DNA from: an uncultured Gammaproteobacteria bacterium
GTDB taxonomy: Bacteria > Patescibacteriota > Microgenomatia > CAZETR01 > Amesbacteraceae
Assembly: GCA_964356225.1 (NCBI GenBank)
Contig: CAYHGA010000002.1
Span: forward strand, 14,894-78,893
Direction: 5' to 3'
Length of the DNA stretch: 64,000 nucleotides
The first letter of the stretch is position 1, and each line of letters begins with the position of its first letter. Below the pieces are notes generated by a model that saw only the letters and a list, made by a program, of their open reading frames with translations, did no database searches and had not been told where the DNA came from. The position numbers were made by a program, and so were the translations under genes. This document shows, one piece after another, positions 12,571 to 57,173 of this stretch.

Positions 12571-12575
12571 AGTTC

Positions 12576-15033: not shown

Positions 15034-15042
15034 GGCAGGTTT

Positions 15043-15684: not shown

Positions 15685-15687
15685 GGA

Positions 15688-40827: not shown

Positions 40828-42554
40828 ATACCGATTTTAATGTCTTCCTTAACAGATAAAAACTTTGTGGAAAACATTCCCGAAAGCCCGGCCAGCGTTT
40901 CCAAAGATTTAACCAAGAAAACACCAATTGTTAAAATAGGGTGAGATAGAAGTTTTCTCCAATTTCTAAAAAATGCAGGTCTAAAAATAATATTTCCGTA
41001 CTTTAATGCGAATGCCGGATTTGCCAACATGAGTATACTTGCTGTTCTTCCGTAAAAAAACTTCTTTTTCATGGAGTTGAATATACTAAAATTTCCTTCA
41101 TTATGATAGATTGGTCCACTTATTCTTCCAATCCTAAAGCCCGACCTCCTTACTCTCAAATCTAAGTCTTTATCTTCAGATAAAACCATTTTTTCGTTAT
41201 GACCCCCGACTAATTTGTAAACGGATGTCTTGAAAAAACGGGCAGATTCTATGGTATCATCTCCAACATACATACTTCTCTCGAATATTTTCACTTTTGC
41301 CCAAAAGCCCCTTCCGTATGAAATTTCAGGAATAACGAGAGCGTCATAATTTTTTATCTTTTTTATGCACTGCTCTAGTACTGAAGAAGCAAGTTTCATG
41401 TCAGCGTCCAAATGCAGTAGATACTCACCCCTGGCTAATTCAGACGCGGATTTTCTTCCTTGGGCCATACTAATATTTTTTTGTAGATGTCTTATCTTAA
41501 TTTTTTTGCTAAATCGTTTTAAAAGATATTTTGTGTCGTCCATTGTTTTTACGTCATCATTAATAATGACTTCAAATTTTTTATTTGTTTGTTTCACAAG
41601 CGAAGGAAGCAAATTTTTCAGATGTTCACCTGCATTTAAAGTGGGGACAATGATCGAGATCAAACCTTCTTCTGTCTTACTTTTTTTCATCGGTTCATAA
41701 TTTTTAAGATTTTCCAGTGTCTTGTCTGTAAATATCACTTGAATTGTATTTATAAAACCCCAAAGAGCGGCAAATGTTTCTAGTGTTTTCATCAAAAACA
41801 TTCCTAGCGATAAAGTAGGGTTTGCCAGTATTTTCTTCCAATGCCTAAAATACGCGGTTCTGAAAATTAAGTTGGCTTGATTGAGAGCCTGTTTGGGGTT
41901 TTCTGCTATATAAACGTGTGCTGTTTTACCGTAGAAAAACTTTTTCTGTAAATTTTTTTTAAGACTCAAATTGCCTTCATTGTGATAAATGGGGGCGTTA
42001 ATTCTTCCTATTTTAAAGCCGGCTTTTCGGATTCTTAAGTCTAAATCTTTATCCTCTGATAACACCATTTTTTCATTATGGCCTCCAATTTTGTTGTAGA
42101 CATCCGTCTTGACAAATCGAGCAGATTCTATAGTTTCGTCACCGATATACATGCTTCTTTCAAACGTTTTTACCTTAGCCCAATATCCTTCCCCATATGA
42201 AATTTCAGGAATAATTAAAGCGTCGTACCCTTTGTTAACCTCTTTGATACATGACTCTAACACCTTTGATGATAAAGACATGTCTGCGTCAAGATGTAAA
42301 AGATATTCTCCCGAAGCTTGCTTAGCTCCTCTTTTCCTCCCTTGAGCCATACTAATGTTCTCCCGTAAATATTTTACTTTAAGCTTTTTGCTAAATTTCC
42401 TTAGCACCACTTTTGTATTATCCGTGGTCATTTTGTCATCATTAATAATCACTTCAAAATTTTTGTACGTTTGATTAACTAGAGATGGCAAAAGATCGTT
42501 TAAATAGCCCGCGGCATTTTTTGTAGGAATTATAATTGAGATTAATTTATTCAT
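40818..42554 (-). CDS. Tandem-duplicated two-domain GT2 glycosyltransferase
   Basis: 578 aa. Residues 1-290 and 291-578 are collinear paralogous GT2 modules about 70% identical, for example ISIIIPTKNAAGYLNDLLPSLVNQT versus ISIIVPTLNAGEHLKNLLPSLVKQT. Each half ends in a hydrophobic segment. Confidence 0.75.
   Translation of the reverse strand: MNKLISIIIPTKNAAGYLNDLLPSLVNQTYKNFEVIINDDKMTTDNTKVVLRKFSKKLKVKYLRENISMAQGRKRGAKQASGEYLLHLDADMSLSSKVLESCIKEVNKGYDALIIPEISYGEGYWAKVKTFERSMYIGDETIESARFVKTDVYNKIGGHNEKMVLSEDKDLDLRIRKAGFKIGRINAPIYHNEGNLSLKKNLQKKFFYGKTAHVYIAENPKQALNQANLIFRTAYFRHWKKILANPTLSLGMFLMKTLETFAALWGFINTIQVIFTDKTLENLKNYEPMKKSKTEEGLISIIVPTLNAGEHLKNLLPSLVKQTNKKFEVIINDDVKTMDDTKYLLKRFSKKIKIRHLQKNISMAQGRKSASELARGEYLLHLDADMKLASSVLEQCIKKIKNYDALVIPEISYGRGFWAKVKIFERSMYVGDDTIESARFFKTSVYKLVGGHNEKMVLSEDKDLDLRVRRSGFRIGRISGPIYHNEGNFSIFNSMKKKFFYGRTASILMLANPAFALKYGNIIFRPAFFRNWRKLLSHPILTIGVFLVKSLETLAGLSGMFSTKFLSVKEDIKIGIWK
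40818..42554. repeat. Intragenic tandem direct repeat, two units of about 870 bp each (about 75-80% nucleotide identity)
   Basis: The duplication is seen both in the protein and in DNA. Compare 41170-41350 with 42040-42220. Confidence 0.7.
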
Positions 42555-42870
42555 TTGGGGGTTTAGTCGCTACTTTTAACAGTCTTAAAAAAGAATAAAA
42601 GACAAATGTGTAAATCATGAATCCGGTTTGTATTCCAAACAGGCTTAGTGGCAGAAGAAATAGAATGCTAAAAATGACTAAAGTTTCCGGGACTTTATAC
42701 ATCGTTACTATTGCCAATGAAAATAAGAGCAACTTAAGCTCCAGGCTTTGTTCTAAAATATAAACTTCGGCTCCGGTCTTTATAAGCTCAGAAAAAATAA
42801 TATAGAAAATCAAAAGTAACATAATTTTTGGCTTTTCCAGATGTATATGCGTAATTATATTAATTTTCAT
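42547..42870 (-). CDS. Small polytopic membrane protein, possible GtrA-like lipid-linked sugar translocase
   Basis: 107 aa with 3-4 predicted transmembrane helices. It lies between a GT2 and a giant GT-C gene with 4-8 nt overlaps. Assignment rests on size, topology and context only. Confidence 0.35.
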   Translation of the reverse strand: MKINIITHIHLEKPKIMLLLIFYIIFSELIKTGAEVYILEQSLELKLLLFSLAIVTMYKVPETLVIFSILFLLPLSLFGIQTGFMIYTFVFYSFLRLLKVATKPPNE

Positions 42871-45800
42871 TTTTTTGAATAAAATAATACTAAATATATT
42901 AACCCCAAACTAAACAACGATATTATACTAACTAAAGAAGTTTTATAGAGAATATTTTGGGGCCGATACTCGATAAGAAATGCCAATTCCTTTTCACTAC
43001 CACTGTCTATTAACCAACCGTTGCCATAAGCATTTAACTTAATATCCGGACTTTTAGCCCCCTCTCCCTTAAACACCAAATCTGATAATAAATGCCTGTC
43101 CTGTCTTTCATATTCGACCACTTTTCCGCCCAAGTATTTTTTCTCTCTGCCTTTAAAATAGGAGTTGGCAAGACTTGTTTCTACTTCCCGCACACTCCAC
43201 TGTTGATCAAACCTAGAATTAAAACCTAAAATAAACGAGTCGCTGATACCGGACACTTTGACAAGATAAGCGGTCTGATTAAGCGCTACAAATTGTAAGT
43301 TGTAGTTTTCTGGCGGAATTAATGGATTTTCTTTTGTTACAAAAGCCAAATAATCGGAATAATTTTCAGTGACTTTTATACCTTTTAATTCAAAGGCAGC
43401 AGGAAAGTCATAAGTACCCTCTACACATATTCTTAAGAGGGCCGTTTCTGCATAAATACTTGGTTTATATTTAATATTTAACCTATAGGAAAATGGGGCA
43501 GAAGAATTTTTATCCGTCTGGGGATAAATAGTTTTTTTATTGCCTTTGGGAAATTGTTGATTTGTCTCCAGAAGTTCAATATCCACTAATCTATCGGAAA
43601 GTGTCAAATATTCCAAGTTGAGATTATAGTCTATTTCAGGATCTACCTCACCAAGATTTATTGATTTGCATTCAGAAGATCTAGCGGTTGCGTTGATTTT
43701 GAAACCGGGATAGGATTTCTCTTTGCGAATTAATTCTGGCAAAACTATTGATTGTCCGCCCTGGTCAAGTCTAATTGATTCTCCAAAATACCATTTATTA
43801 CTTGAGGACGACTTTGCAAGGATGTGAGGGGTATTGTTTACGAATCCAGAAAGAGCTTGTCTATCATTGGGCTTGTAATTATAAACAGCCAGTTTGTAGT
43901 TGCCTGCGTATGGTACGTTTATAGTATATTGTTTTGTGCGTACATCGTAATTAGAAATAGGAACCTCGGGAGAAATGTCCAATTCCTGAACGCTCATGGT
44001 TAACATGTCCTCAAATTTGCCTAGTTGTGCCCGAGTTGATTCTGTAAGTCCAGTCTCCCTCCACTTTTGGATACTGACCAAAAAATTCCAGTAGTAAAAA
44101 TATATTCTGCGAGCGTATTCGTCTTTTTGACTTTGTTGGTCAATATCCTTGAAGAACTGATCAACTAGATAGATATTGTTACTCCACTTTCGAAAAAGAT
44201 ACGAAATCGTATTACTATTTTTGGGATTTATTATTATTCTGTCCATGGCTGATATCTCCTTACTCATTGTTCCCATAGTAAAGTCTATTTTTTCTGTTGG
44301 CAGTTCATACTTTTCACTTTTTTGTTGGTCTATAAATTCAATAAGAAAATAAAATGGATTGCTTGGAAAGATCGGAGGAGGGTTTGATCTCACGACGTCT
44401 ATGTATTTTTTTTCTTGACAATTTAAACACTGTGCTTGAATTGTAATGTTTTGAATATCCTTCTGGTATATGATAGGGTCTATATTGCTTCCCTCGCTAA
44501 TGTGCTTGAATATAAACGCGTCTGCCAAAGAAGGCATCCCTGGCGTTTGACTGATTCGAGAAAGTTGTGAAGTTTCTGCCAAAATATATGAAAAATTTTG
44601 TGGGATATAAATGAGAGGTTTTGTCTCGGGGTCGTTAATAGTAAAAAACTTCCACTTACCAACTTCTTTATATAAAGATGAATTAGGCGCGCGGTAGAGT
44701 GCCTTTTTGATTGAACCCGTAAGATAGTCCATGTCCTCGTCAACTTTAAAATCTTCTTGCACGATAGCTCTATCTACTCCCACGTATTTCAGAAGCGATG
44801 ACTGAGAAGATTTTTCAAGTTGTTGATAAATTGCATTAACTAACCCGGGCTCGTCCCCACTCAAGACGGCGTCATTAAGTAGAACCGGTTTTCTGCTCAA
44901 TATGCTGGGTATACTCGATAGGCTGAAGTATTTCCAATCATAAGCAATATATTTATTGCCGTCGTGAAGTTGGGGTAGCATGAGTGTTCTGGCGGAAAAA
45001 CTATTACTATCAAGCTCCTTCTTTGCCTCTAGGATATAGTCTGGAACTTTAACTCTGGTGGAGTATTTATTAGACCAATTGAAAAACACTCCTGTAAAAA
45101 CCGGGTAGTTATATATGCCCAATAAGACGACAAAGGCAGTGAGGCTAAAAAAAGGCGCTCTCTTTACGGTCAGCTGTTTTAAACCGACCGCTACTAGATA
45201 AGAATAAGCAAACCAAAGGGCCATACCAAATTTATAAAAGGGGGTTCGGAAAATCGGAAAACCGGGGATATATTTTAAGGCCAGGTCATATAAGACACCT
45301 GTTGGAGGGTGGGAACCTGCCGTAAAAGGTATTGCTACCAGCAAAATCGCCAGAAATACGACTTTGTAAACTATGTCAGAGTTGGCTTGACCCTTTTTGT
45401 TAAGCAAGCTGAAAAAGGCTATGGCAGGAAAAACGCTGGCAAGCAGTAAAAAGAAATAATTTGTTAGAAGTGTATTGGCATACGGATGGTTGGGATTATC
45501 ATACCAATCGGGTATGCCTTGGAGTTTAATAAGGTTGGTGAAACTGGCATTTTTACTTATCTCGCGACTCCAGGCGATTGCTCCTTCGCTACCACCTGCG
45601 GCACCGATTCTATGTGTATAGTTATATTGATATGAAGCTATGTAGGGATATATCCAGTAGAAGTTGAGTAGGAGGACAAAAATTAAAGATAAAAGAGAGA
45701 AACTTAAAGTTCTTTTGAATTTATCTACAAATGGTTGTGAAGAAATTAGAAAAGTTATTATCGTTGTAGTTAGAGCAACAATGAATAACCCTCCCCATAA

Positions 45801-46391
45801 CGGAATCCCGGCTCCACCGTTTAGGAAAAAAAGTGTTACTCCTACCAGGATGGCATTTTTAAAAACTGACCCTTCTCTTAAATTAACATTGATTATTGCG
45901 AGAGTTATCAAAGGAAGCGCTGAGACAATAGAAAACTTGGACATCTCGGCAATAATCCAGGCCTGGAGAAGATAATGGTTCAGCATGTAAAACAAAGATC
46001 CGGAAATTCTTAAGACGGAATTTTCTTTTTCTGGGTGAAGCGATTTTAAAAGAACGTACATAGTTATCCCGGGAAGGGTAAACCAGAAAATGAAGTCAAA
46101 CTTTTGAGCAAGCTGTAATGAGCCTGTTAGCGCGTAAAAAAACGCCTGTAGGCCGTGTATAAAAATACCGGGGATGGCATCGGTTTGATTAGAACCAAAA
46201 CTGCCAACTCTATCAGTCCAAACAAATAACCTGTCTAACCAAAAGTCTATTGGGGCTAAAGGATAACTCATATCGTGGCCAGCGGCTAAATAACCACCCT
46301 TAAACCACAAAAGCGGTACTAACCCTACTAGGAGAAGGAATATTATTTCCAACCAATACCGATTAAATTTAGGTAGTTTCAACGGTCCCAT
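42867..46391 (-). CDS. Giant polytopic membrane protein, putative GT-C glycosyltransferase (AftD/YfhO-like)
   Basis: 1174 aa. About 13 N-terminal transmembrane helices, first loop GHDMSYPLAP...WTDRVGSFGSNQ, a soluble domain of about 650 aa, and one C-terminal helix. It is a paralog of the 1031-aa neighbour. Confidence 0.5.
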   Translation of the reverse strand: MGPLKLPKFNRYWLEIIFLLLVGLVPLLWFKGGYLAAGHDMSYPLAPIDFWLDRLFVWTDRVGSFGSNQTDAIPGIFIHGLQAFFYALTGSLQLAQKFDFIFWFTLPGITMYVLLKSLHPEKENSVLRISGSLFYMLNHYLLQAWIIAEMSKFSIVSALPLITLAIINVNLREGSVFKNAILVGVTLFFLNGGAGIPLWGGLFIVALTTTIITFLISSQPFVDKFKRTLSFSLLSLIFVLLLNFYWIYPYIASYQYNYTHRIGAAGGSEGAIAWSREISKNASFTNLIKLQGIPDWYDNPNHPYANTLLTNYFFLLLASVFPAIAFFSLLNKKGQANSDIVYKVVFLAILLVAIPFTAGSHPPTGVLYDLALKYIPGFPIFRTPFYKFGMALWFAYSYLVAVGLKQLTVKRAPFFSLTAFVVLLGIYNYPVFTGVFFNWSNKYSTRVKVPDYILEAKKELDSNSFSARTLMLPQLHDGNKYIAYDWKYFSLSSIPSILSRKPVLLNDAVLSGDEPGLVNAIYQQLEKSSQSSLLKYVGVDRAIVQEDFKVDEDMDYLTGSIKKALYRAPNSSLYKEVGKWKFFTINDPETKPLIYIPQNFSYILAETSQLSRISQTPGMPSLADAFIFKHISEGSNIDPIIYQKDIQNITIQAQCLNCQEKKYIDVVRSNPPPIFPSNPFYFLIEFIDQQKSEKYELPTEKIDFTMGTMSKEISAMDRIIINPKNSNTISYLFRKWSNNIYLVDQFFKDIDQQSQKDEYARRIYFYYWNFLVSIQKWRETGLTESTRAQLGKFEDMLTMSVQELDISPEVPISNYDVRTKQYTINVPYAGNYKLAVYNYKPNDRQALSGFVNNTPHILAKSSSSNKWYFGESIRLDQGGQSIVLPELIRKEKSYPGFKINATARSSECKSINLGEVDPEIDYNLNLEYLTLSDRLVDIELLETNQQFPKGNKKTIYPQTDKNSSAPFSYRLNIKYKPSIYAETALLRICVEGTYDFPAAFELKGIKVTENYSDYLAFVTKENPLIPPENYNLQFVALNQTAYLVKVSGISDSFILGFNSRFDQQWSVREVETSLANSYFKGREKKYLGGKVVEYERQDRHLLSDLVFKGEGAKSPDIKLNAYGNGWLIDSGSEKELAFLIEYRPQNILYKTSLVSIISLFSLGLIYLVLFYSKK

Positions 46392-46395
46392 TTTA

Positions 46396-46530
46396 TCATC
46401 TACTTCTTTCTTTTAGTGAGCTGATTAATATGAGGAATAGAAAACTGTAAACTAAAACCCCAGTTATTTCCCCCAGTTTGTCAAAAAGCAGGAGTAAAAT
46501 AGATGTAAGGATTAAAAATTTACTTGCCAT
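46396..46530 (-). CDS. Small two-helix membrane ORF (44 aa) coupled to the 1174-aa gene. It is not in the ORF track.
   Basis: Manual translation gives MASKFLILTSILLLLFDKLGEITGVLVYSFLFLILISSLKERSR. It starts 2 nt after the stop of the 1031-aa gene and ends 5 nt before the ATG of the 1174-aa gene. It has the same M-x-S-K N-terminus and two-helix layout as the ORF at 35226-35381. Confidence 0.4.
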   Translation of the reverse strand: MASKFLILTSILLLLFDKLGEITGVLVYSFLFLILISSLKERSR

Positions 46531-46532
46531 AT

Positions 46533-49500
46533 CTATAAAAGTAAAAAAAATAAAATAATCAATAAAGAGGCTGTACTTACTCCTACTGCTTTGTAAAAAT
46601 CGTTTTGGTTATTATATTCCAAAAGATAAACATGTTCATTATCCTGGTTACTTTTTTCGGAATTTAAAATCCACCCGGGAGAGAAACCATTTAGTTCAAG
46701 AGTCGGATAAAGTTTTTTGCCGTTGTTTGGGAAAACGATGTCTGATAGCACGTGGGTATCTTGTCTTTCGTACTCAACCACTTTGCCGTTTTGAAAACTT
46801 CTCTTGTCTCCTCTAAAGTATTTGTTTACATCTTGCTCTATTTCTCTTAAACTCCAATTCGGATCAAAACGCGAGTTAAAGCCTAGCAAGAAGCGTTCGC
46901 TGCCTTTAGCTTTGAGTAAATATTTGGTTTGATTTAGGGCTACAAATTCAATATTTGGTGAAACAAACTCGGGAGCATTTTTCATCAATTCTGCAAAAAT
47001 TTTAGGTCTTGTTTCTGAATTTTTCGGTTTTTGTAACTCTAATAAAATCCGTACGTTTTCAAGCGGCACATTGGTAATTTGGTACCAATTTGTGCCGATT
47101 CTTTGAGCGCTAAACGTGCGATTGTTAACCGTCAATTGTATTTGATCACTTAATGTTGACTTATTGTAAAGATAAAGATTATAGCTTCCTGTTTCCGGAA
47201 CTTCGAGGCCGTATTTATATAATTTGTCGTCTACCTTCACCACAGGCTGTCCAAACTGTTCATCAATTTCTGTAATAGCTTTTCTTAATTCAATTTCAAG
47301 ATTAATCAGGTCTGATTTTATCGGGCCTAGTTGAGCAGAAGTTGCCCACTGAGATTCATAAGAAATGAAAAATGACAAGTAAAAACGAAGTTTTCTAAGG
47401 ATTTCTTGTTTTATTTTTGAATCCGAAATTTGATCCAGGTTAAGTTTCATTTCTTTCAAGTTTTTGATTAAATCCATTACTGCTACCCCGATCCCCTTTT
47501 CATCTTTCTTGGCTTGAAGCAAACCCAGGTCTGAAATTAAAGTTGTAGAAGCCGATAAATTGATTTCAATTCTCGCGTTTGGACTACCGGAAAAGTATTT
47601 TCTCGCGTCAGTTATAAACTTACCCAGCTTATAAAACGCTGTTCCGGGTATTAACGCCTTTGATGTGGAGAAATATATTTGATAGTTATCGGCTGAAGGA
47701 CAATCAGTACAATTAGCCTGGATAATAAGTTTAGAAAAAATGTCTACTTTTTTGTTATCTTCTGGAAAATCAGACCACAAAAACGCAGCGCTATCTAAGG
47801 CCCCTGGCAGATTTGCGACTATATCTAAATCTTTTTGATCAGATGAAATGAATGTAACTGCCGGTGGAGAGTAAATTCGAGGAAGGATTTCCCCATTATA
47901 ACCGTAGAAATCCCATCTTCCTATACTTTTCTTAAAAGTAAAATCTTTAGATTTTTTAAATGACTCTTTTATCCCACTTAAGACGTTGCCTTCATAATCT
48001 GGCGAAATAAAGTCATTTTGCACTACGGCTCTGTCAGCCCCTGTAAATTTAACCAAATTAGAATTTCCAAATTTAATATACTCTGATAAAGTGCTGATTA
48101 TCAAATTTGTCTCATTGGGCCTTGCTAACACTCCGTTTACTGTTAAGGATTTTCTTCCCATCATATGTGACAAATCATTTAAGCTAAAATAACCCCAATC
48201 GTAATCAATATACTCAGTTCTTATATCAGCGTTGGGTAAAGATAAAGTTCTGGTAGAGAATTTACTACTATCAAGTTCCTTCTTTGCTTCAAAGATATAA
48301 TCAGGCACTTTTACCATCGTGGATTTCCCTTTAGAATAGTTAAAAAAACTTCCTGTTAAAAATGGATAATTGTATATAAAGAGCGAAACTATAAATGCGC
48401 CAAGTAAAACCTTTGGTTTAATTTTTAACCAGTCTATTACATCTTTGACTCCCACTGCGATTAAATAGGCATAAGCAAACCAAATAATCATCCCAAATTT
48501 AAAAAACCCGGAACGAAACATGCCAAAACCGGGGGCGTTAACCAACAAGTAATCGTAAAATATTCCCAAAGGAGAATGGCTTCCTGCAGAGAGCGGAACT
48601 GCAATAAGTAATAAACTTAAGAAGTAAATTCTCGTTTTAAATAATAAGCCCGATAGTTTTTTAAGATTTAAAAGACCAAACAGAGCTAAAGTCGGAAAAA
48701 GAAGGTTTAGAAATAATAATATGGGATTTTTAAAAAATTCATTTGCAAAAGGATGATTTGGGCTGGCATACCAATCAGGTATTCCCCTAAGTTTAAACAG
48801 GTTTATCCAACTGGTATTTACGCTTATCCCCTGGCTCCAGGAAAGAGTCCCCGCTATTCCCCACGCTTGTTCGAATCTTTGCCCAAAGGTTTGGTTATAA
48901 GACTTAAAATAAGGGTAAAACCAATAACTACTAAGCAGTGTCCAGAATAAAGCAGATAAAAAAGAAAAGATGAGTAATCTTTTTATCTTAGGCCAAAAAC
49001 TTTCGTTTGACAAAAAGAAGAATATTATTGCTGTCGATGCAACTACTACAAACAAGCTAATCAAAAGTGGAATACCCTCTCCACCATTTAAGAAAAATAA
49101 GGTCAGGGCAAAGAGTAGAGAATTTTTTACGGGAGATTCTTTTTTATGTAATGTCTTAATTATTAAAAGTACAACTATAGGTAGAGCTGCGACGATTGAA
49201 AACTTAGTTCTTTCCGCGATAGTCCAGGCCTGAAGAAGATAGTGGTTCATCATGTAAAATAGGCTTCCGAAAATTCTAACCGGATAATCATTTTTCTTAG
49301 GATGTAGATAACAAAGAAGTGCGTACATCATAATTCCCGGAAGAACAAACCAAAAAATGTAAGTTATCTTTTGAACTGCGGATAGCGAGAACCCTATGAA
49401 GGACAGCAAAGCTTCAAGTCCATGTATAAACACGCCCGGCAGAACTTGAACTGAATTAGAGCCAAATGGGCCCAGTCTGTCGGTCCATGTATATAGTCTA

Positions 49501-49628
49501 TCTAAAAAATGAGCTACTGGGGCCAGGGAGAAACCCATATCGTGACCCAATCCTATGTATCCAGGCTTATACCAAAGAAGTGGTGCTAAACCAACGATTA
49601 ACAATAAAAGGATCTCAATTTTTTTCAT
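46533..49628 (-). CDS. Giant polytopic membrane protein, putative GT-C glycosyltransferase (paralog of 42867-46391)
   Basis: 1031 aa. N-terminus LIVGLAPLLWYKPGYIGLGHDMGFSLAPVAHFLDRLYTWTDRLGPFGSNS aligns with the 1174-aa protein. Same topology, ending in a C-terminal helix. Confidence 0.5.
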   Translation of the reverse strand: MKKIEILLLLIVGLAPLLWYKPGYIGLGHDMGFSLAPVAHFLDRLYTWTDRLGPFGSNSVQVLPGVFIHGLEALLSFIGFSLSAVQKITYIFWFVLPGIMMYALLCYLHPKKNDYPVRIFGSLFYMMNHYLLQAWTIAERTKFSIVAALPIVVLLIIKTLHKKESPVKNSLLFALTLFFLNGGEGIPLLISLFVVVASTAIIFFFLSNESFWPKIKRLLIFSFLSALFWTLLSSYWFYPYFKSYNQTFGQRFEQAWGIAGTLSWSQGISVNTSWINLFKLRGIPDWYASPNHPFANEFFKNPILLFLNLLFPTLALFGLLNLKKLSGLLFKTRIYFLSLLLIAVPLSAGSHSPLGIFYDYLLVNAPGFGMFRSGFFKFGMIIWFAYAYLIAVGVKDVIDWLKIKPKVLLGAFIVSLFIYNYPFLTGSFFNYSKGKSTMVKVPDYIFEAKKELDSSKFSTRTLSLPNADIRTEYIDYDWGYFSLNDLSHMMGRKSLTVNGVLARPNETNLIISTLSEYIKFGNSNLVKFTGADRAVVQNDFISPDYEGNVLSGIKESFKKSKDFTFKKSIGRWDFYGYNGEILPRIYSPPAVTFISSDQKDLDIVANLPGALDSAAFLWSDFPEDNKKVDIFSKLIIQANCTDCPSADNYQIYFSTSKALIPGTAFYKLGKFITDARKYFSGSPNARIEINLSASTTLISDLGLLQAKKDEKGIGVAVMDLIKNLKEMKLNLDQISDSKIKQEILRKLRFYLSFFISYESQWATSAQLGPIKSDLINLEIELRKAITEIDEQFGQPVVKVDDKLYKYGLEVPETGSYNLYLYNKSTLSDQIQLTVNNRTFSAQRIGTNWYQITNVPLENVRILLELQKPKNSETRPKIFAELMKNAPEFVSPNIEFVALNQTKYLLKAKGSERFLLGFNSRFDPNWSLREIEQDVNKYFRGDKRSFQNGKVVEYERQDTHVLSDIVFPNNGKKLYPTLELNGFSPGWILNSEKSNQDNEHVYLLEYNNQNDFYKAVGVSTASLLIILFFLLL

Positions 49629-51246
49629 TTGTGATATCCTTTTTTAATTTCTCTCTTATGTTTCCAGAAACGTTTTTAACAGAGTGTTTTTGATAGTCCC
49701 AATAATACGCATGCACATTGTCAGAAGATACGTCTGGATTCTCTTTGAGCGCACTTAATAGTTTGCTATAAGTCATGAAATATCCGTATTTGCCAGTTTT
49801 ATATTGTTTAAGCCCTTCATGGGAGAGGTCCCAAAAATCTGGATCGGTTAAAGCTTCATTTGGAACCTTGCCGGTGTTGTATAACCAAACAGCTAATGTT
49901 TGTCCAAATCCTGACTGAAATTCCCAAAACCCATTATTGTCCGTAAAAAAATAAAAGACATTGTTTCTTTCCAAGTTTGGTTTAATTTGTGATACAGTCT
50001 CAAGCATGGCTTTGCGGTATGCTCCTGTTTTGATATCTAATGCCAAGTCTCGTTTGATATTTGTTACATAATAACCCAAGAGGGGTAACAATATTATTAT
50101 GGATAATGGCAGTTTAATTTTAGGCAAAATTGACATATAAGTGTCGACTGTGAGAGCCAAAATCAGCCCTGCCCAAAGAGCGGGAAAAATATAAAAGCGG
50201 TGCTCTAATGTTGCCGGTTGGTTGGGGAACAAGACAAAAGGCGCACAGGAAAAACCAAAAGTTACTAGCGAGAACAATATTGTTTTTTTTGACCTTTTGG
50301 CTAAAGCTACGGCCCCAAGTACTATTGATAAGACTGTAATTGAACCAATTACTGAAACGGCGTCTCCAATAATGCTTTCTATTACATAACCGTTAGTCAA
50401 ATCTCCATAATGGATCTTGTTAGCTTTGTAAAATAAACTATAAAGTTGTTTTTGGGGGATGAAGACTTGGAAAAGGGTACGGGAAGGAATTAAAAGTGTG
50501 TTGTAGACAATATTTCCGCTCTGGGTAATTTTAGCCGCTTCAGGAACACTAGATGAAACCTCAATATTTTTGAAAAGTAGTTTTGGAAGTGCAATTGTTA
50601 AAAGAATTGGAATTATTAATATACTCCAACTCCATCTAATGCCTTTGGAAAAGACTAGTAATGGAAAAGTAAGTATGTAATATATTCCAGATTCTTTAAA
50701 AAGCAGTGAGATCAACATAAAGAGTGAGCAAAGTAATAAATTTTTTATCCTGCGATTTTTTCGGAAGGTTAATAGATTCCAAAAAGACATCATGAAGAAT
50801 GTAAACGAAAACTGAGACGGCACAATCGAGCTAATCCACGTGATGGCTTGTTGTGAGTATCCGTTTGTTAACCAAAATAGCGTAGTTACGATGGAAATTA
50901 CCCTGGATTCAGTAAGCTTCTCGATGCAAAAGTAAATTAGCAGAGAATTGGCCACTGCCATAAAAAATGCCAAATAACCGTACCATGAAAAATTTAGGCC
51001 GAAGGTGTTGAAAACCACATAATTGGCCAAAGATGTAAGGGGAAGGAATCTGAACAAGCCTCCGGCTGGATGAAATATGTCTATAACGGCTCGGGTTATG
51101 CCACCATTATCCCTTCTACTCATGGCCCCACCCAATCCCAACCACTCATCCTGCTGAAAAAAGATGTTATTTATTCCCCAAAAGGCTAGTAGAGCAACTA
51201 AAATAATTATTGACAAACTAAGAATGTGGGGCCGTATCTTACGCAT
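49615..51246 (-). CDS. Polytopic membrane protein, putative GT-C glycosyltransferase
   Basis: 543 aa, about 13 transmembrane helices. First loop FFQQDEWLGLGGAMS has a D-E motif. A soluble C-terminal domain of about 130 aa follows. Confidence 0.45.
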   Translation of the reverse strand: MRKIRPHILSLSIIILVALLAFWGINNIFFQQDEWLGLGGAMSRRDNGGITRAVIDIFHPAGGLFRFLPLTSLANYVVFNTFGLNFSWYGYLAFFMAVANSLLIYFCIEKLTESRVISIVTTLFWLTNGYSQQAITWISSIVPSQFSFTFFMMSFWNLLTFRKNRRIKNLLLCSLFMLISLLFKESGIYYILTFPLLVFSKGIRWSWSILIIPILLTIALPKLLFKNIEVSSSVPEAAKITQSGNIVYNTLLIPSRTLFQVFIPQKQLYSLFYKANKIHYGDLTNGYVIESIIGDAVSVIGSITVLSIVLGAVALAKRSKKTILFSLVTFGFSCAPFVLFPNQPATLEHRFYIFPALWAGLILALTVDTYMSILPKIKLPLSIIILLPLLGYYVTNIKRDLALDIKTGAYRKAMLETVSQIKPNLERNNVFYFFTDNNGFWEFQSGFGQTLAVWLYNTGKVPNEALTDPDFWDLSHEGLKQYKTGKYGYFMTYSKLLSALKENPDVSSDNVHAYYWDYQKHSVKNVSGNIREKLKKDITNEKN

Positions 51247-51959: not shown

Positions 51960-53501
51960 TTAAATTTTACGGGCATATATTTCAAGAGAATCAAAAAAAT
52001 TTATGGTTAAAAACGGTTTTCCCTTAAGCGCGGATAACAATTTATATATTGGTGGAAATATATTTTTTAGACGGGTTATCCAGTAATTTAAGCTAAAAGT
52101 CCAACTGTATTTCCCGAGCTTTTCAATTTTATACCCTAAAGACAAAAGAAGTAAAGATAATGTTTCTTCTGTAAAATAATAAATATGATCTGGACGAATG
52201 TGCCACCAATTTTCACCCAATAATTTTGAAATTAGGCTCCCTATATCGGGCGTCACTAGACATAACACCCCGTCTTTATTCAGAATTTTGTGAATGTCTG
52301 CTAAAAGTTTTCTGGGGGAAGATACGTGTTCAATCACGTCCAGGCAAGTTACGGCATCAAATGGCTTCCCCTTGAGCTTAACAGTTTCAAGTGTACCTTG
52401 AATAATATTTAGTCCGAATTTTTCCCTCCCAATTCTAGAAGCCCATTTTGATGGCTCAATTCCGATTGACTCCCACTTATGTCTGTGCGCAATTTCTAAA
52501 AGTGTTCCTGTAGCGCATCCAATATCCAAAAGCTTTCCAGAAAATTTATGTAGATTTTCTATCTTCTTAAATATTCTTTCATGCGTCATTAACCTTGCCG
52601 TTCTTTCATTTTCATAATCAGGGTCTACAAAGCCTGAATATCTTTCTACTAGTTTTTTATCTTTCTCTCTGGGAGAACAGTAAAGTAAATTACAATCCAA
52701 GCATTTAACTATTTGAGAATGGTCACCATATGAATTGTCGGTTATGTAGTACTTATCTTTGGCAATTCCCCTTTTTTGGTAAACAACTCTTGCTTTATCG
52801 TTACTACAAATATCGCAAATATGATTTGATAAACTGTTTATTTGAAATGTTTTTTTCATGAATCTATGATATTTTGTTAAAAGAAAAACCCAGGGAATTA
52901 CCAATGATTTTTTGAATTGTGCTTGAGAAAGATTTTCTAAAAACTCACTTCGACTCGAAAAATTATCCATGCAGATGTAATTTCTACCAAGCTCGTATTT
53001 AGTGTGAGCGTCACTGCCGATACACACAATTTTCCCTATTTTCTTTGCAAACTTTTCTGCTTTTAAATTGTCCCATGGCTTAATTGTTCTACCATTAAAG
53101 ACTTCAATTATGTCTATGTCATCAATATTCAAGGTTAAAGAATTTTCGTTAATGGCGGTTTTCCTTGTGGTGGTGTCAAACGGATGCGGTAAATACACAA
53201 GCCCTCCTTGGTGTTTAATTTCTTTAATTGTTTGCCTCATTGAAAGACCTGAAGGAATGAATTTTTTTAAAAATAAGCCTATTATCTCTCCTTCTTTACT
53301 CAAGATCTCCTCACCCACAATTACTTTAAATGGGGCAATTCTTTGAAGCCGTAGGGCGCCTTCAATTTGATTGTGGTCGGTAACAGCTAAAACATCAATC
53401 TTTTTCTGGATGCATTTATCTATTAAATCTTTGTAAGAGATCGAACAGTCGTACGAATACTTTGTATGAACATGTAATTCAACTTTAATTTTGGCAGACA
53501 T
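51960..53501 (-). CDS. Fusion protein: N-terminal PHP-family phosphoesterase, Cys4 zinc-ribbon, C-terminal class I SAM methyltransferase
   Basis: 513 aa. ELHVHTKYSYDCS...AVTDHN...GSDAHT are the His/Asp metal motifs of a PHP domain. The middle has CDICSND...CLDCNLLYC. The C-terminus has LLDIGCATGTLLEIA...AVTCLDVIEHV...KDGVLCLVTP. Confidence 0.65.
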   Translation of the reverse strand: MSAKIKVELHVHTKYSYDCSISYKDLIDKCIQKKIDVLAVTDHNQIEGALRLQRIAPFKVIVGEEILSKEGEIIGLFLKKFIPSGLSMRQTIKEIKHQGGLVYLPHPFDTTTRKTAINENSLTLNIDDIDIIEVFNGRTIKPWDNLKAEKFAKKIGKIVCIGSDAHTKYELGRNYICMDNFSSRSEFLENLSQAQFKKSLVIPWVFLLTKYHRFMKKTFQINSLSNHICDICSNDKARVVYQKRGIAKDKYYITDNSYGDHSQIVKCLDCNLLYCSPREKDKKLVERYSGFVDPDYENERTARLMTHERIFKKIENLHKFSGKLLDIGCATGTLLEIAHRHKWESIGIEPSKWASRIGREKFGLNIIQGTLETVKLKGKPFDAVTCLDVIEHVSSPRKLLADIHKILNKDGVLCLVTPDIGSLISKLLGENWWHIRPDHIYYFTEETLSLLLLSLGYKIEKLGKYSWTFSLNYWITRLKNIFPPIYKLLSALKGKPFLTINFFDSLEIYARKI

Positions 53502-53504
53502 TGA

Positions 53505-54383
53505 CTATAAGTAGAAAAGTATAAATAAAAGAATAATGACGATGGTATTTAAGATAAACTTATAACTAAAAACGAATGATTCAATATTTCTTGATTTGGC
53601 TTCACCGGATTTTACTTTTTTTACTATCCAAAGAAAATATAACACTATAAACGGAATTCCCATTAAAAATGACCGCTGATATTTATAAATTTCTCTAGCA
53701 ATAAAAATTGTTGATAGAGCTATATAAAAATACATCATGATCAACAGGCTTTTCAGAGAATAGGTATCAAATGTGTTTCTGTATGGAACTAGTTTTTTAC
53801 CATAAAACTTGAGCTCACCGTATCTTTTTGCGGTCATTAAAACTGCTCCTATAGACCAGGTTGATAATAAAATTAAAAGAGGGGGGAATTCTGATTTAAC
53901 TATCACAAACCAACCCAGGAGAAATCTGATAGGATTATTTAATGATTCTGAAATTACGTCTAAATAAGGTATATTTTTTAGTCTTATAGGTCTAATGTTA
54001 TACAAAATTCCGGCGATCCAGAGGGATCCAAGGACGTAAAGGAAATTGACATTATAAAAAATGTTAGCTACGAGCAAACTTCCAAATAATAGAATAAAGG
54101 CTAGTATTTCTGCTCTAAAAATTGTTATTTTGCCTGAAGGAATTGGTCTTGTTTTTTTGTCCGGGTGTCTTTTATCGAATTCTACATCTGCGATCTGGTT
54201 GACAATGTAATTAACCGAAGAAATTAGAGACGCCAGGATAAAAGCTCCAACTGCTTGTATCACAACTTGCGATCCAATGGATTTGCTTTGACTAAGAAAA
54301 ATTGCCGATATTATTCCAGCGATAATAAACAAGTTTTTGAACCAGTGATCAACCCGCATCAGCCTGATGTAACTATAGAACAT
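53505..54383 (-). CDS. UbiA-family polyprenyl-phosphate prenyl/phosphoribosyl-transferase (resembles decaprenyl-phosphate 5-phosphoribosyltransferase)
   Basis: 292 aa, 8-9 transmembrane helices. NQIADVEFDKRHPDKKTRPIPSGKI matches the N-x-x-x-D-x-x-x-D ... R-P-[IL]-[PA]-S-G UbiA active-site motif. N-terminal RVDHWFKNLFIIAG resembles the RPxQWxKN start of DPPR synthases. Confidence 0.7.
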   Translation of the reverse strand: MFYSYIRLMRVDHWFKNLFIIAGIISAIFLSQSKSIGSQVVIQAVGAFILASLISSVNYIVNQIADVEFDKRHPDKKTRPIPSGKITIFRAEILAFILLFGSLLVANIFYNVNFLYVLGSLWIAGILYNIRPIRLKNIPYLDVISESLNNPIRFLLGWFVIVKSEFPPLLILLSTWSIGAVLMTAKRYGELKFYGKKLVPYRNTFDTYSLKSLLIMMYFYIALSTIFIAREIYKYQRSFLMGIPFIVLYFLWIVKKVKSGEAKSRNIESFVFSYKFILNTIVIILLFILFYL

Positions 54384-55668
54384 TACTTTGGCTCAAAAAT
54401 TTCTTAACTTCTTTAAATACTGCATTTTGATCTTGATTTGCGTCAATTATTTGAAGTTTGATAAGTCTAGGCAAGCTTTGATATATTTTTTGCTGCTCAT
54501 AGTAATAATCGGGGGTAAATTCCTGTTCGCGTTTAAAAATAGTTGTTGGTCCTGCTGACATCATAAAGGCTATGTCTGATTTGGGTAATAATTTTACAAA
54601 AAATTTAAATGCCCACACCGGACAGTACCCGTAGTAAAAAAGATTGGCCCAAATGTCAGTGTAAAACCTGTCTGCGATGACAAAATCATTACTGGTAACA
54701 ATTGGGTATATTTTAAAAATATATGCTGCCCAAATATCAATAAAGGCAGGTATGAACCATAATTTAAAAAGAGGGTTTTTATTACGCCTAACTGGACCAG
54801 ACGGTGAACTACCCGTTGTTAATCTCAAAAATCCAATCAATGGCTTAAACAAAAAATACGTAAACATTGATTCGCCTGCGTTGACTCTTTTTCCATGGCT
54901 AATTAAATAATCAGTTAGAAGTTTTACTTGAGTGCTTTTCCCGGTACCATCAATCCCTGTAAACGATATCAAAAATCCCCTTCTTTCATAGGGTAAAGTT
55001 TTATTAACCAGATATCTAACACGGAAAAAGAGATAATAAGCTAAACTCACAAAATCGAACTTCTCTAGGTAAGAATATAGTATTAATTTCACTGGTAAAA
55101 ATAGGGGAAATTTTGGCTTTGGTTGCTGGTTTTTCATCCACTTTATGAAATTTATAAATGTGTTGTTCCAATTATACTGAACGGTCTGTTGTATGAGTTC
55201 TTGAGAATTCTTTATTTTTCTCCATTGGGGGAAAAACATTTCAAAGTCATCCTGTGTGAAATAGGTCTTTTCGAAAATAACGTTTATCATAACTAAAAAG
55301 GCATCCCATGTGGCGTCCACACAGTTTTTGGTTGAATTTAGCCAGATTTTTTTAACATCCAAATATTTTTCCTTGCGCCATGTAAAATCCTGGTGTAAAT
55401 CGATTTTTATTCTCCCGGGCCTGTTTAAATTAACCTGTATTCCCGCAATCCGTCCTCCTAATGCTTGATCGTGTGAAGATTGTTTGTAGCCTAATCTCTC
55501 AAGACTGTAAATCGATCCTTCAAAATCTTTAGACCGAACCAGAATATCAAGATCATCAGGAGCCCCTGTATTGGGATTATACCGCGTTAACAAATAATTT
55601 ATTCCTCGTAAATCCTGTAAAGTCTGCCTCATTTTTTTAATCATATCTTCTTTTTCATGAACAACCAA
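54373..55668 (-). CDS. Two-domain protein: N-terminal nucleotidyltransferase-fold (NTase/LicD-like) domain fused to a thymidylate-kinase-like P-loop kinase domain
   Basis: 431 aa. N-terminus GINYLLTRYNPNTGAPDDLDILV has a Gly...D-x-D NTase-fold signature. C-terminus FLISFTGIDGTGKSTQVKLLTDYL is a Tmk-type Walker A. Confidence 0.5.
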   Translation of the reverse strand: MVVHEKEDMIKKMRQTLQDLRGINYLLTRYNPNTGAPDDLDILVRSKDFEGSIYSLERLGYKQSSHDQALGGRIAGIQVNLNRPGRIKIDLHQDFTWRKEKYLDVKKIWLNSTKNCVDATWDAFLVMINVIFEKTYFTQDDFEMFFPQWRKIKNSQELIQQTVQYNWNNTFINFIKWMKNQQPKPKFPLFLPVKLILYSYLEKFDFVSLAYYLFFRVRYLVNKTLPYERRGFLISFTGIDGTGKSTQVKLLTDYLISHGKRVNAGESMFTYFLFKPLIGFLRLTTGSSPSGPVRRNKNPLFKLWFIPAFIDIWAAYIFKIYPIVTSNDFVIADRFYTDIWANLFYYGYCPVWAFKFFVKLLPKSDIAFMMSAGPTTIFKREQEFTPDYYYEQQKIYQSLPRLIKLQIIDANQDQNAVFKEVKKFLSQSNVL

Positions 55669-57173
55669 CCTTCTGGAGTCTCTTCTACGATTTTGAATTT
55701 TTCAAAGAGGTATCGATCAATTGTTTGATTATAGTTTTGCATTTTCGGTGTTCTCATTTTAGGGCCGTTGTTGGGATCATAAACAACGACTTTGACATTG
55801 TTTTTTTCGATCTTGTCAATAAATTCTAGTTGTTCTTCTTCTGTGGTAATAAACCCGGCCAGGAGATTATTAAACTGGGTAGGACTGGACCTGTGTGACA
55901 GAAAATAAAGACCTGCCATGTAAGGTAAAACCAGCACAGATTCGGTTGAAGTGGAATTTTCTCGTAAGAAAGTTGCTGATCTTTTCAAACTTTCTGCTGA
56001 AGGCTTTGTTGAGTTTGCAGGGTATTTGGAATTGAGATTAAACGTCTGATCAACTATTTGTATCTTATGGTCATTAAAGTGTATCCACCAGACCGATTGG
56101 GATATAGCGGCAACAAACAAGCCAATAATTAAACCATGCAATATAATCCTGGTTTTAAAATTCCGGGTATTTTTAAGAAGAAACACTCCCAAAACAAGAA
56201 ATGGCATTCCCCCTTTTACGAAATGTCCCATATCGCTCCGGCCAAAAACGTAAGGCAGAGCGAGTATTCCTGCAAGAGTAAGAATCGGAATTTCTATATT
56301 GTTTTTGATTATGACAGCTGTTTTTTTTAGAACCAGGAGGATACTAACCAAATATGTAGCTATGATGGCATATCCGTAATAGGCCGTGAATGTGTTACTC
56401 ACAGTGGCTAAATCAAACCGCAAAGGAATTAAATCTAATATGGATGGGAAAGATAAATGGTGAAGTCGGGTAATGGTTATTGCGCCCATAAAGACTTGGT
56501 TTATGAAAGCGCCAAAAATTCCCAAGTTGACCGTCCATAAGACTATAGCCAAAAGCGGTAATCCAAAACCGATTCCCATAAACAGTGAATACACGAACCA
56601 CCTTCTAATCCAGTCTTGGCGGGAAACCAAAAAAAGATGGATCGGCAAAACAACTATGGCAGCTACCCCAAAAGTACCAGGGATGTCTAAACGGAAAAGG
56701 CTAGACAATCCCAGCACCGAACCCGAACAACTAAAGAGCCACTTATTTTTTTGGTCAACGGCTTGAAGAAAAAGATACAAACCCAAAAAAATGAAGGTCA
56801 TCAAAAAAAGACGTTCGATGTTGACATCTAAAAATGTAATCAAAGTAGCTGGAATAGTAGATAATTTCGTTGACGCAAACCTTTTGCAGATGAGGAAAAT
56901 TAAAACTGGCGTAAATGAAAAAATGACGCTGGAAATAATTCTAGGTACTTGTACTGACTCACCGAAAAATTTGAATATTAAAGCATAAAAATAGTTATCC
57001 ATAGGAGGAAATATGGCAAAAAAATCACGATACGGGATGTCTCCAGTTAAAATTCTCCGAGCATTGTGCAGACTCTCCCCTTCGTCCACTAATCCAAAAC
57101 CATAGAACGAGAAAAGAGTAGTTTTAGAAAGAGCTACAAGAAAAATTAGAATTATGATCAGGTTACTTTTCAT
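55641..57173 (-). CDS. GT-C fold membrane glycosyltransferase (ArnT/PMT-like). Its start overlaps the stop of a GtrB-like GT2.
   Basis: 510 aa, about 13 transmembrane helices. First loop LVDEGESLHNARRILTGDIPYRDFF has the D-E-x-x-x-x-x-A motif of GT39/GT83 enzymes. Confidence 0.55.
   Translation of the reverse strand: MKSNLIIILIFLVALSKTTLFSFYGFGLVDEGESLHNARRILTGDIPYRDFFAIFPPMDNYFYALIFKFFGESVQVPRIISSVIFSFTPVLIFLICKRFASTKLSTIPATLITFLDVNIERLFLMTFIFLGLYLFLQAVDQKNKWLFSCSGSVLGLSSLFRLDIPGTFGVAAIVVLPIHLFLVSRQDWIRRWFVYSLFMGIGFGLPLLAIVLWTVNLGIFGAFINQVFMGAITITRLHHLSFPSILDLIPLRFDLATVSNTFTAYYGYAIIATYLVSILLVLKKTAVIIKNNIEIPILTLAGILALPYVFGRSDMGHFVKGGMPFLVLGVFLLKNTRNFKTRIILHGLIIGLFVAAISQSVWWIHFNDHKIQIVDQTFNLNSKYPANSTKPSAESLKRSATFLRENSTSTESVLVLPYMAGLYFLSHRSSPTQFNNLLAGFITTEEEQLEFIDKIEKNNVKVVVYDPNNGPKMRTPKMQNYNQTIDRYLFEKFKIVEETPEGWLFMKKKI

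Follow-up and report, generated by a model that had tools for sequence, protein, structure and literature searches.

In mycobacteria, the UbiA-family enzyme Rv3806c (DPPRS) makes decaprenyl-phospho-ribose 5-phosphate from phosphoribosyl pyrophosphate (PRPP), Rv3807c takes off the 5-phosphate, DprE1 and DprE2 epimerize the product to the arabinose donor, and the GT-C glycosyltransferases (Emb/Aft) use this donor. The pathway has been generalized to 'three-component' systems that add α-pentofuranoses to glycans, including a synthase with a fused HAD-type phosphoribose phosphatase (PRP), with the phosphatase belonging to different structural families across organisms (Kelly et al., 2024; PMC11127046). 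Lipid-linked pentofuranose donors are the basis of mycobacterial arabinan, a drug target, and of a surface-glycan decoration that was generalized only in 2024. Here, a gene that appears to belong to such a pathway is described from a 64,000-nucleotide stretch of DNA (hereafter the window; contig CAYHGA010000002.1 of assembly GCA_964356225.1, positions 14,894 to 78,893 of the forward strand). The gene, at window positions 51960-53501, encodes one chain in which a PHP domain is joined through a Cys4 zinc ribbon to a class I S-adenosylmethionine (SAM) methyltransferase, and follows directly after a gene for a DPPRS-like UbiA enzyme. We propose that the PHP domain is probably the phosphatase for the UbiA product and that the methyltransferase works in the same donor pathway, a joint claim that is held with moderate confidence.

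The fusion protein and its halves

The gene is a single open reading frame (ORF) that runs from ATG to stop over exactly this interval on the minus strand and encodes 513 amino acids. The PHP (PF02811; residues 8-52, E = 5.6e-10, 40.2 bits against a cut-off of 26.4), PHP_C (PF13263; residues 143-194, E = 2.4e-8, 33.8 bits against a cut-off of 21.3) and Methyltransf_23 (residues 312-461, E = 4.6e-25) families of Pfam all matched the protein above their gathering scores. AlphaFold2, supplied with the family alignment, predicted one continuous, well packed chain (mean pLDDT 89.3, pTM 0.87), in which low confidence was limited to a loop inside the ribbon. The three-part architecture that an earlier note had read from the DNA letters is thus upheld by the Pfam domains, the AlphaFold2 model and a conserved family. 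The alignment comprised 29 family members with 48-88% identity to the window protein, and at the junction of the two halves F206, T209, K210 and R213 are invariant among them; in the model, a helix of residues 204-218 connects the halves. The earlier note had also raised the question of a frameshift or sequencing error joining two genes. Separate PHP and methyltransferase genes do occur in relatives (L014 and L095), but the family holds 31 full-length clusters at 90% identity, drawn from independent samples, assemblies and assemblers, and together with the conserved in-frame junction and the confident single-chain model these rule out a frameshift or misassembly, for which the residual chance is negligible.

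To place the architecture, the fusion protein was scored against 1.84 billion representatives at 50% identity and the best 150 matches were inspected. Among these, one carried the full-length PHP-methyltransferase combination (P0010) and one was a shortened copy (P0032), while the remainder covered one half only, either residues ~1-217 or residues ~225-512. The two halves therefore each come from large families, whereas the combined protein is confined to one narrow clade. Members with a name are Candidatus Daviesbacteria (P0012/L001) and a 'Patescibacteria group bacterium' (L014). The NCBI annotation of one family member reads only 'methyltransferase domain-containing protein', and a literature search found no paper on a PHP-methyltransferase fusion, in agreement with the earlier remark that the combination was not recognizable from characterized proteins. 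Three close homologues of the fusion carry other labels: L012 (a 1-kb contig, 85% identity) is labelled 'Nanoarchaeota archaeon', and L010 and L011 are labelled 'uncultured Gammaproteobacteria'. These labels are probably binning or labelling errors, since the relatives are Daviesbacteria and Patescibacteria.

The putative metal ligands of the PHP half, namely H10, H12, D18, D42-H43, E65, E72, H106, D164 and H166, are invariant in the 29 members, and H10, H12, D18, D42-H43, E65, H106, D164 and H166 are also invariant in a separate alignment of 18 sequences. The motifs quoted in the earlier note were located at residues 10-13 (HVHT), 41-44 (TDHN) and 163-167 (SDAHT) and do not vary among the 29 members, so that the loss of metal ligands on careful alignment, which the note had named as grounds for refutation, was not observed. 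When isolated, the PHP half gave the same PHP and PHP_C matches above threshold. In a profile search of the PDB its best match was 9etk (E = 7e-13), followed by 3e0f, 7ug9 and 2yb1, which are of the TrpH/RNase AM/Cv1693 type, with TM0559 (2anu) and YcdX as further matches; Foldseek returned TM0559 (2anu; TM-score 0.64-0.67 on the target) and the PHP domain of RNase AM (7ug9). The half is a member of the PHP superfamily, with a distorted (beta/alpha)7 barrel according to the predicted model.

With the TrpH/Cv1693/RNase AM (YciV) subfamily it has in common the ligand pattern HxH, D, DH, E, H and DxH. It differs from that subfamily in that the histidine of the 'H-I-V-G-L' strand is replaced by the invariant glutamate E72, and in that it comprises only ~220 residues and scores far below all of the NCBIfam cut-offs; moreover, the subfamily belongs to nucleotide metabolism, whereas the gene context of the fusion is lipid-linked glycan synthesis. 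Enzymes of the TrpH/Cv1693/RNase AM group cleave phosphate esters on the ribose of nucleotides, and a PHP domain acting on a ribose phosphate ester is chemically plausible because these are its nearest relatives.

In the second half, the four ribbon cysteines C229, C232, C267 and C270 are invariant in the 29 members, and the model shows short beta strands in the ribbon. The resemblance pointed out earlier between this half and the zinc-ribbon methyltransferase encoded at 38170-39114 holds: the two are paralogues with 25% identity (pairwise E = 4e-24), the alignment begins at the CxxC...CxxC ribbon and the two ribbons align with each other. The methyltransferase domain carries the invariant motif WWHxRxDHxxYF. 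Its sequence matches in the PDB were 3cc8, KijD1 and TcaB9; those to the TcaB9/KijD1 type were weak in phmmer (E = 7e-5 to 7e-3) and confined to the Rossmann region. With Foldseek, the ribbon and methyltransferase together superposed on KijD1, MtmC and TcaB9 over ~300 columns (E ~1e-13, 12-14% identity), and the modelled fusion appears to have the same N-terminal Cys4 zinc domain, Rossmann SAM domain and C-terminal lid. Methyltransf_13 and Methyltransf_14, the families of TcaB9 and KijD1, were absent from the Pfam matches of the fusion at E <= 0.01. The ribbon-plus-methyltransferase region thus shares the architecture of these enzymes but is not a member of their sequence families; as sugar C-3-methyltransferases they add a C-methyl group to dTDP-4-keto sugars, a kind of substrate that is not implied for the fusion.

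Association of phosphatase, methyltransferase and UbiA

Among the NCBIfam models, those for DPPRS matched the window UbiA best (E = 8e-28), and at E <= 0.01 the PDB search retrieved only M. tuberculosis DPPRS, as 8j8j (E = 6.9e-12) and 8j8k (E = 0.0056). As judged by sequence, DPPRS is the nearest of the solved UbiA enzymes to the window UbiA. Eight of the 12 residues of Rv3806c that are involved with PRPP, Mg2+ or the 5'-phosphate are identical in the window UbiA (R22, K28, Y70, N73, D77, K87, R90 and K143), including the 5'-phosphate binders K28 and Y70. According to the paper on the Rv3806c structure, other UbiA enzymes do not conserve the sites that bind phosphoribose, and the PRPP site of Rv3806c faces the cytosol. 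Homology supports the prediction that the neighbour of the fusion is a PRPP-dependent polyprenyl-phosphate phosphoribosyltransferase. Sequence prediction found in the fusion protein neither a signal peptide nor a hydrophobic stretch of membrane-spanning length, which matches the cytosol-facing PRPP site of Rv3806c, and we infer that the fusion is a cytoplasmic bifunctional enzyme. The hydrophobic moment of its linker helix is moderate (0.47-0.58), and a role of this helix as an amphipathic anchor at the membrane interface is a conjecture.

In all of the fusion loci (the window, L001/L002, L003/L004, L010 and L011; 47-68% identity), the PHP-methyltransferase gene directly follows UbiA, within a block that reads GT-C (PMT_2), NTP_transf_5, dTMP-kinase-like protein, UbiA, PHP-methyltransferase, in some cases an extra methyltransferase, and a membrane protein of ~550 residues. 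The association also takes other forms. In L014, labelled 'Patescibacteria group bacterium', and in L095, the same functions are split over three consecutive genes encoding UbiA, PHP (222 and 227 residues, respectively) and methyltransferase (291 and 299 residues). In L040, a Bacillota metagenome-assembled genome (MAG), and L045, a Vulcanimicrobiota MAG, a standalone PHP of the same clade abuts UbiA without the methyltransferase; the UbiA of these two loci passes the NCBIfam DPPRS equivalog cut-off (264 bits versus 234), and in L045 genes for a DUF2298 membrane protein and a PMT_2 GT-C border the pair. The PHP thus adjoins UbiA in the window, L001-L004, L010, L011, L014, L095, L040 and L045. 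Finally, in P0185 and P0175 a HAD phosphatase takes the place of the PHP domain, fused to a zinc-ribbon methyltransferase with 35-37% identity to that of the window. The N-terminal HAD domains carry DxDGT and DxDxT motifs and match the Pfam families Hydrolase/HAD_2 and HAD, and the fusion genes lie 2-3 nt from a UbiA gene whose sole PDB match is the DPPRS of M. tuberculosis (loci L092 5619-8070 and L094 400-2732). The HAD-methyltransferase beside UbiA is an independent, non-homologous version of the phosphatase-methyltransferase-UbiA trio.

A further observation concerns the L014 locus (11492-16206), where the genes for UbiA, PHP and methyltransferase precede those for a DUF2079 membrane protein, a B12-binding radical SAM enzyme and an additional methyltransferase, a hint that the same glycan may be modified further.

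Proposed role and competing explanations

In the proposed scheme, the fusion would complete a lipid-linked pentofuranose donor for an envelope glycan. As the gene context suggests, the PHP domain would remove the 5-phosphate of polyprenyl-phospho-ribose 5-phosphate to give polyprenyl-phospho-ribofuranose, and the fused methyltransferase might then methylate the lipid-linked ribose on the cytoplasmic face, possibly at the freed 5-hydroxyl; by analogy with known systems, the donor would be flipped and used by the PMT_2-like and AftD-like GT-C enzymes on the envelope glycan. GT-C glycosyltransferases transfer sugars outside the cytoplasm, and those of the PMT_2 family use polyprenyl-phosphate-sugar donors; homology supports the use of a lipid-linked sugar by the GT-C enzymes of this module. 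Because the fusion, to judge from its sequence, is cytoplasmic, as is SAM, while GT-C transfer is extracytoplasmic, a methyl group for the pentose would have to enter at the stage of the lipid donor. The patterns of fusion, fission and displacement described above argue for the PHP domain as a 5-phosphatase and for the methyltransferase acting next on the same ribose. No DprE1/E2-type epimerase was found among the window ORFs scanned (at least 250 residues in 1-28 kb and at least 120 residues beyond) or in the orthologous modules, and the sugar is for this reason probably ribofuranose and not arabinofuranose. The PHP domain as the dephosphorylating step fits the published systems, in which the polyprenyl-phosphate 5-phosphoribosyltransferase (PPPRS) is followed by a phosphatase whose structural family differs between systems (PMC11127046).

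Direct methylation of the lipid-linked ribose is the weaker part of this scheme and is put forward tentatively. A more specific form of it, which we regard as speculative, is that the PHP domain unmasks the 5-hydroxyl, that the tethered methyltransferase O-methylates the sugar at once on the cytoplasmic face, and that polyprenyl-phospho-(O-methyl)ribofuranose is exported and then attached to the envelope glycan by the AftD-like and PMT_2-like GT-C enzymes, where it would form a cap that cannot be extended. The 'glycan O-methyltransferase' of the earlier note comes close to this function and is probably not exact, in that the acceptor would be the lipid-linked donor rather than the finished glycan.

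Several observations weigh against the proposed role. The window UbiA reaches 97.6 bits on NF008977, against the DPPRS equivalog cut-off of 234, and four of the 12 Rv3806c residues (Q135, Y138, Y157 and K208) have no identical counterpart in the phmmer alignment. The modules of L006, L090 and L091 have UbiA followed by the methyltransferase with no PHP seen, and are otherwise identical. Since these three modules have a methyltransferase without a visible PHP, the phosphatase is not obligatory in the module, which also fits an accessory role; the PHP-less modules match the partial mutant phenotype of the Pseudomonas aeruginosa phosphatase 6245, an Rv3807c homologue that is only partly required. 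In the wider PHP clade, most genes have no UbiA nearby, and because this clade is heterogeneous, membership in it does not by itself predict the substrate. The nearest structural relatives of the methyltransferase act on dTDP-sugars and not on lipid-linked sugars. A clear flippase, such as one of the MATE, GtrA or SMR type, was not identified in the module, where the small ORFs with three transmembrane (TM) segments have no family match; Wzx-like MOP flippases are encoded elsewhere in the cluster. Beyond domain identity, the role and the methyl acceptor are wholly inferred.

Two alternatives keep part of the scheme. The PHP domain may be a phosphoribose 5-phosphatase while the methyltransferase acts on another cytoplasmic substrate, such as a nucleotide sugar or an acceptor-glycan repeat unit carried on a lipid; the fusion would in that case do no more than bring two enzymes of one glycan pathway together. 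The substrates of KijD1, MtmC and TcaB9, the closest structural relatives of the ribbon-plus-methyltransferase region, would agree with this, as would the presence of at least five other methyltransferases and many GT2 and GT4 genes in the window and the position of the paralogous zinc-ribbon methyltransferase away from UbiA. However, the methyltransferase adjoins UbiA in every close relative examined, whether PHP-fused, HAD-fused, split or phosphatase-less, and two unrelated phosphatases have been fused to it independently, for which consecutive action on one substrate is the simplest account; another acceptor is accordingly considered rather unlikely. Alternatively, the PHP domain may hydrolyse a soluble by-product or cofactor, such as the pyrophosphate released by PRPP transfer, a nucleoside bisphosphate or the product of the kinase-like neighbour, and so drive or tidy the pathway. 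Some PHP domains of DNA polymerases show pyrophosphatase activity, the nearest characterized PHP subfamily acts on soluble nucleotides, the module regularly contains the kinase-like P-loop gene, which in P0035 is joined to the methyltransferase, and the module exists without a PHP. Against a soluble substrate stand the PHP-DPPRS pairs of L040 and L045 and the HAD-methyltransferase-UbiA loci of L092 and L094, in which the adjacency is kept where no kinase-like gene was seen, and the finding that the equivalent HAD domain acts on lipid-linked ribose 5-phosphate in the characterized system (PMC11127046), and we consider this explanation improbable.

The remaining alternative, put forward in the earlier note, is a CpsB/Wzh-like tyrosine phosphatase that regulates polysaccharide assembly and is fused to a glycan O-methyltransferase. 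CpsB enzymes have the PHP fold, and the gene is part of a large polysaccharide cluster that also encodes Wzx-like flippases and a protein with a Wzy_C domain. No CpsB-type Pfam family matched the PHP half even at E <= 10, a threshold at which the HMMER filters drop many weak matches, and no CpsB-type entry was among the PDB profile matches or the top 50 Foldseek matches, where the neighbours in sequence and fold are PHPs of the TrpH/RNase AM/TM0559 type. No tyrosine-kinase partner (CpsC/CpsD or Wzc-like) was found among the window ORFs scanned, in which a short gene could be missed, and the conserved partner gene is the DPPRS-like UbiA. A CpsB-type phosphatase was rejected on these grounds and is considered very improbable.

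Neighbouring genes and the wider PHP clade

The features of the locus are collected in Table 1. The NTP_transf_5 and kinase-like parts, joined in the window, are separate genes in L001, L003, L006, L010 and L011; no NCBIfam support was obtained for a PhnN-like, PRPP-forming role of the kinase-like protein, which in L090 is fused to the methyltransferase (P0035). The PMT_2 GT-C gene is present in every fusion locus. The second, plain methyltransferase also occurs in L011, and not in L001, L003 or L010. The 543-residue membrane protein is conserved in all of the module loci, with an invariant FFQQDEW near its N-terminus, and has no Pfam or PDB match.

After this ~550-residue membrane protein, the module ends with one or two giant membrane proteins and then a small ORF with three TM segments. 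The two giant proteins of the window (42867-49628) are 40% identical; each has a polytopic region at its N-terminus, large parts outside the cytoplasm and a TM segment at its C-terminus. The two gave no Pfam match at E <= 1 and no PDB match with profiles of their orthologs, and the AftD assignment is reached only through the L001 ortholog of the 1174-residue protein, which matches GT-C_AftD (PF11847) over ~500 residues with 32.3 bits against a cut-off of 26. L010 and L011 have homologues of the 107-residue ORF at this place, and L001 and L003 have an unlike ORF of ~125 residues with three TM segments there; the 107-residue protein is a possible flippase or accessory subunit.

Table 1. Features of the fusion gene and its module in the window (aa, amino acids; AF2, AlphaFold2)
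Feature	Position	Strand	Basis
Small ORF, 107 aa, ~3 TM, overlaps both neighbours	42547..42870	minus	ORF
Giant 1174-aa membrane protein, AftD-like GT-C as judged by homology	42867..46391	minus	L001 ortholog
Giant 1031-aa membrane protein, paralogous to its 1174-aa neighbour	46533..49628	minus	Alignment, synteny
Polytopic membrane protein, 543 aa, GT-C-like candidate	49615..51246	minus	Synteny, hydrophobic segments
Second plain class I methyltransferase, 230 aa, abuts the fusion stop codon	51267..51959	minus	Methyltransf_25/11
Fusion gene, PHP / Cys4 zinc ribbon / class I SAM methyltransferase, 513 aa	51960..53501	minus	ORF, Pfam, family alignment, AF2
Class I SAM methyltransferase with C-terminal lid, residues 278-513	51963..52670	minus	Pfam, PDB matches, Foldseek
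Cys4 zinc ribbon, residues 227-277 (C229, C232, C267, C270)	52671..52823	minus	Alignment, AF2, paralogue, Foldseek
Linker helix, hydrophobic/basic, conserved, residues 203-218, PWVFLLTKYHRFMKK	52848..52895	minus	Family alignment, AF2
PHP domain, ~residues 1-200, putative metal ligands	52902..53501	minus	Pfam, alignments, profile matches, Foldseek
UbiA-family gene, predicted polyprenyl-phosphate 5-phosphoribosyltransferase (PPPRS/DPPRS-like), directly upstream of the fusion	53505..54383	minus	Pfam, NCBIfam, PDB
NTP_transf_5-like domain fused to dTMP-kinase-like P-loop domain	54373..55668	minus	Weak Pfam matches
GT-C glycosyltransferase, PMT_2 family	55641..57173	minus	PF13231, 30.7 bits (cut-off 26.1); ~10 hydrophobic segments

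The window starts with a bacterial dcw cluster (FtsA, MurG, FtsW, MraY, penicillin-binding protein and MraW), after which a glycan cluster of ~45 kb contains GT2, GT4, Wzx-like and Wzy-like genes. The G+C content is 0.44-0.49 in positions 1-30000, which hold the dcw cluster and a first GT4 block, and falls to 0.33-0.39 in 32000-60000, the second glycan block, which holds the fusion; this suggests that the second block is a compositionally distinct, possibly acquired island. At 40818-42554, a protein of 578 residues consists of two tandem, closely similar GT2 domains that represent an internal duplication.

Relatives of the PHP half are found in varied surroundings; only for P0100 was the contig too short to give an informative gene context. 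The standalone PHPs of Chloroflexota have housekeeping neighbours, for example M24 peptidase, elongation factor P, exonuclease VII and a formyltransferase-like gene, and CoaE-PHP fusions adjoin DHH phosphoesterases; these contexts rule out that the whole clade acts on lipid headgroups. In a neighbour-joining tree of the PHP domains, which is weakly resolved and was used solely for naming the sister group, the PHPs linked to UbiA are spread over at least three positions. Seven Firmicutes/Synergistota loci (L046 10001-12120, L049, L050, L052, L056, L057 and L069) form the sister group of the PHPs of the fusion; in them a standalone PHP is immediately followed by a phosphoribosyltransferase (PRT)-domain protein of 216 residues and by LicD, with GT4 and penicillin-binding protein genes nearby. 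These loci may represent PRPP-dependent glycan ribosylation with a PHP-type dephosphorylation.

The next-closest relatives, which are 42-45% identical to the PHP half of the window and count as its closest ones outside the Candidate Phyla Radiation, are GT4-PHP fusions with a C-terminal PHP (L005 8001-9884 and L059-L089, e.g. L066 8828-10708). In at least 20 species of Solirubrobacterales/Thermoleophilia they stand in an operon of the order PAP2_3, CDP-alcohol phosphatidyltransferase, inositol-1-phosphate synthase and GT4-PHP, and are a candidate for a fused phosphatidylinositol-phosphate (PIP) phosphatase and PimA-like phosphatidylinositol glycosyltransferase. In 2019 the PIP phosphatase of actinobacteria was still called 'yet-unidentified' (PMC6506517), and the first bacterial PIP phosphatase was reported from Bacteroides in 2021; the literature search found no link between PHP enzymes and PIP phosphatase. 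The GT4-PHP operon resembles the present locus in that a membrane transferase would make a lipid-phospho-headgroup-phosphate, in that the PHP is fused to the next modifying enzyme and in that the system is uncharacterized, and differs from it in having inositol phosphate as the presumed headgroup and an N-terminal GT4 as the fusion partner. If the capping version of our proposal is extended, the clades with GT4-PHP and PIP synthase and with PHP, PRT and LicD would form a wider and so far unrecognized class of PHP phosphatases that act on phosphorylated headgroups. A phospholipid context was also seen in L007 (6694-9403), where a distant PHP relative with an N-terminal extension of ~95 residues (P0058) neighbours a CDP-alcohol phosphatidyltransferase-like ORF, a diacylglycerol-kinase-like gene and a CarS/CDP-diglyceride-synthase-like gene.

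Comparison with known pentofuranose-donor pathways

The kind of pathway proposed here is known as a whole; what appears to be novel is a predicted PHP-type phosphoribose phosphatase that is physically coupled to a methyltransferase and occurs in Patescibacteria. The fusion is not a member of any enzyme family characterized for the steps of these pathways, and in the papers retrieved neither a PHP-fold enzyme nor a methyltransferase was reported at the 5-phosphatase step. If the proposal is true, yet another unrelated fold, PHP, would serve the dephosphorylation and provide a new bioinformatic marker for such pathways, which would extend to the Patescibacteria (the Candidate Phyla Radiation), whose envelope glycans are essentially uncharted. 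It would also suggest that the donor can be methylated before export, and such a methylated donor would represent a new kind of activated sugar donor. The repeated fusion of a PHP or a HAD domain to one methyltransferase family beside the synthase points to a concrete two-step reaction, and the GT4-PHP fusions offer a candidate for the actinobacterial PIP phosphatase.

Compared with the mycobacterial decaprenyl-phospho-arabinose pathway, the module has a UbiA whose closest solved relative is DPPRS, a predicted phosphatase step and, by homology, an AftD-family GT-C. It differs from that pathway in that no DprE1/E2-like epimerase was found here, so that the sugar probably stays ribose, and in that the methyltransferase has no mycobacterial counterpart. 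Compared with the ORF15-ORF14-ORF12 system of Citrobacter youngae O1/O2 (PMC11127046), it has in common a PRPP-using UbiA synthase, a 5-phosphatase step, GT-C enzymes and a position in a surface-glycan cluster, as far as these can be predicted. The MATE flippase and the GT136-type GT-C of C. youngae were not recognized in the module, and the published core contains no methyltransferase; C. youngae is a Gram-negative pathogen, whereas the host here appears to be of the Patescibacteria type. In C. youngae the phosphatase is a HAD-family PRP fused to the synthase, whereas here a PHP-fold domain is fused to the methyltransferase. Rv3807c and the HAD-type PRP are described as belonging to different structural families, and the PHP domain described here would be an analogue, not a homologue, of the HAD-type PRP.

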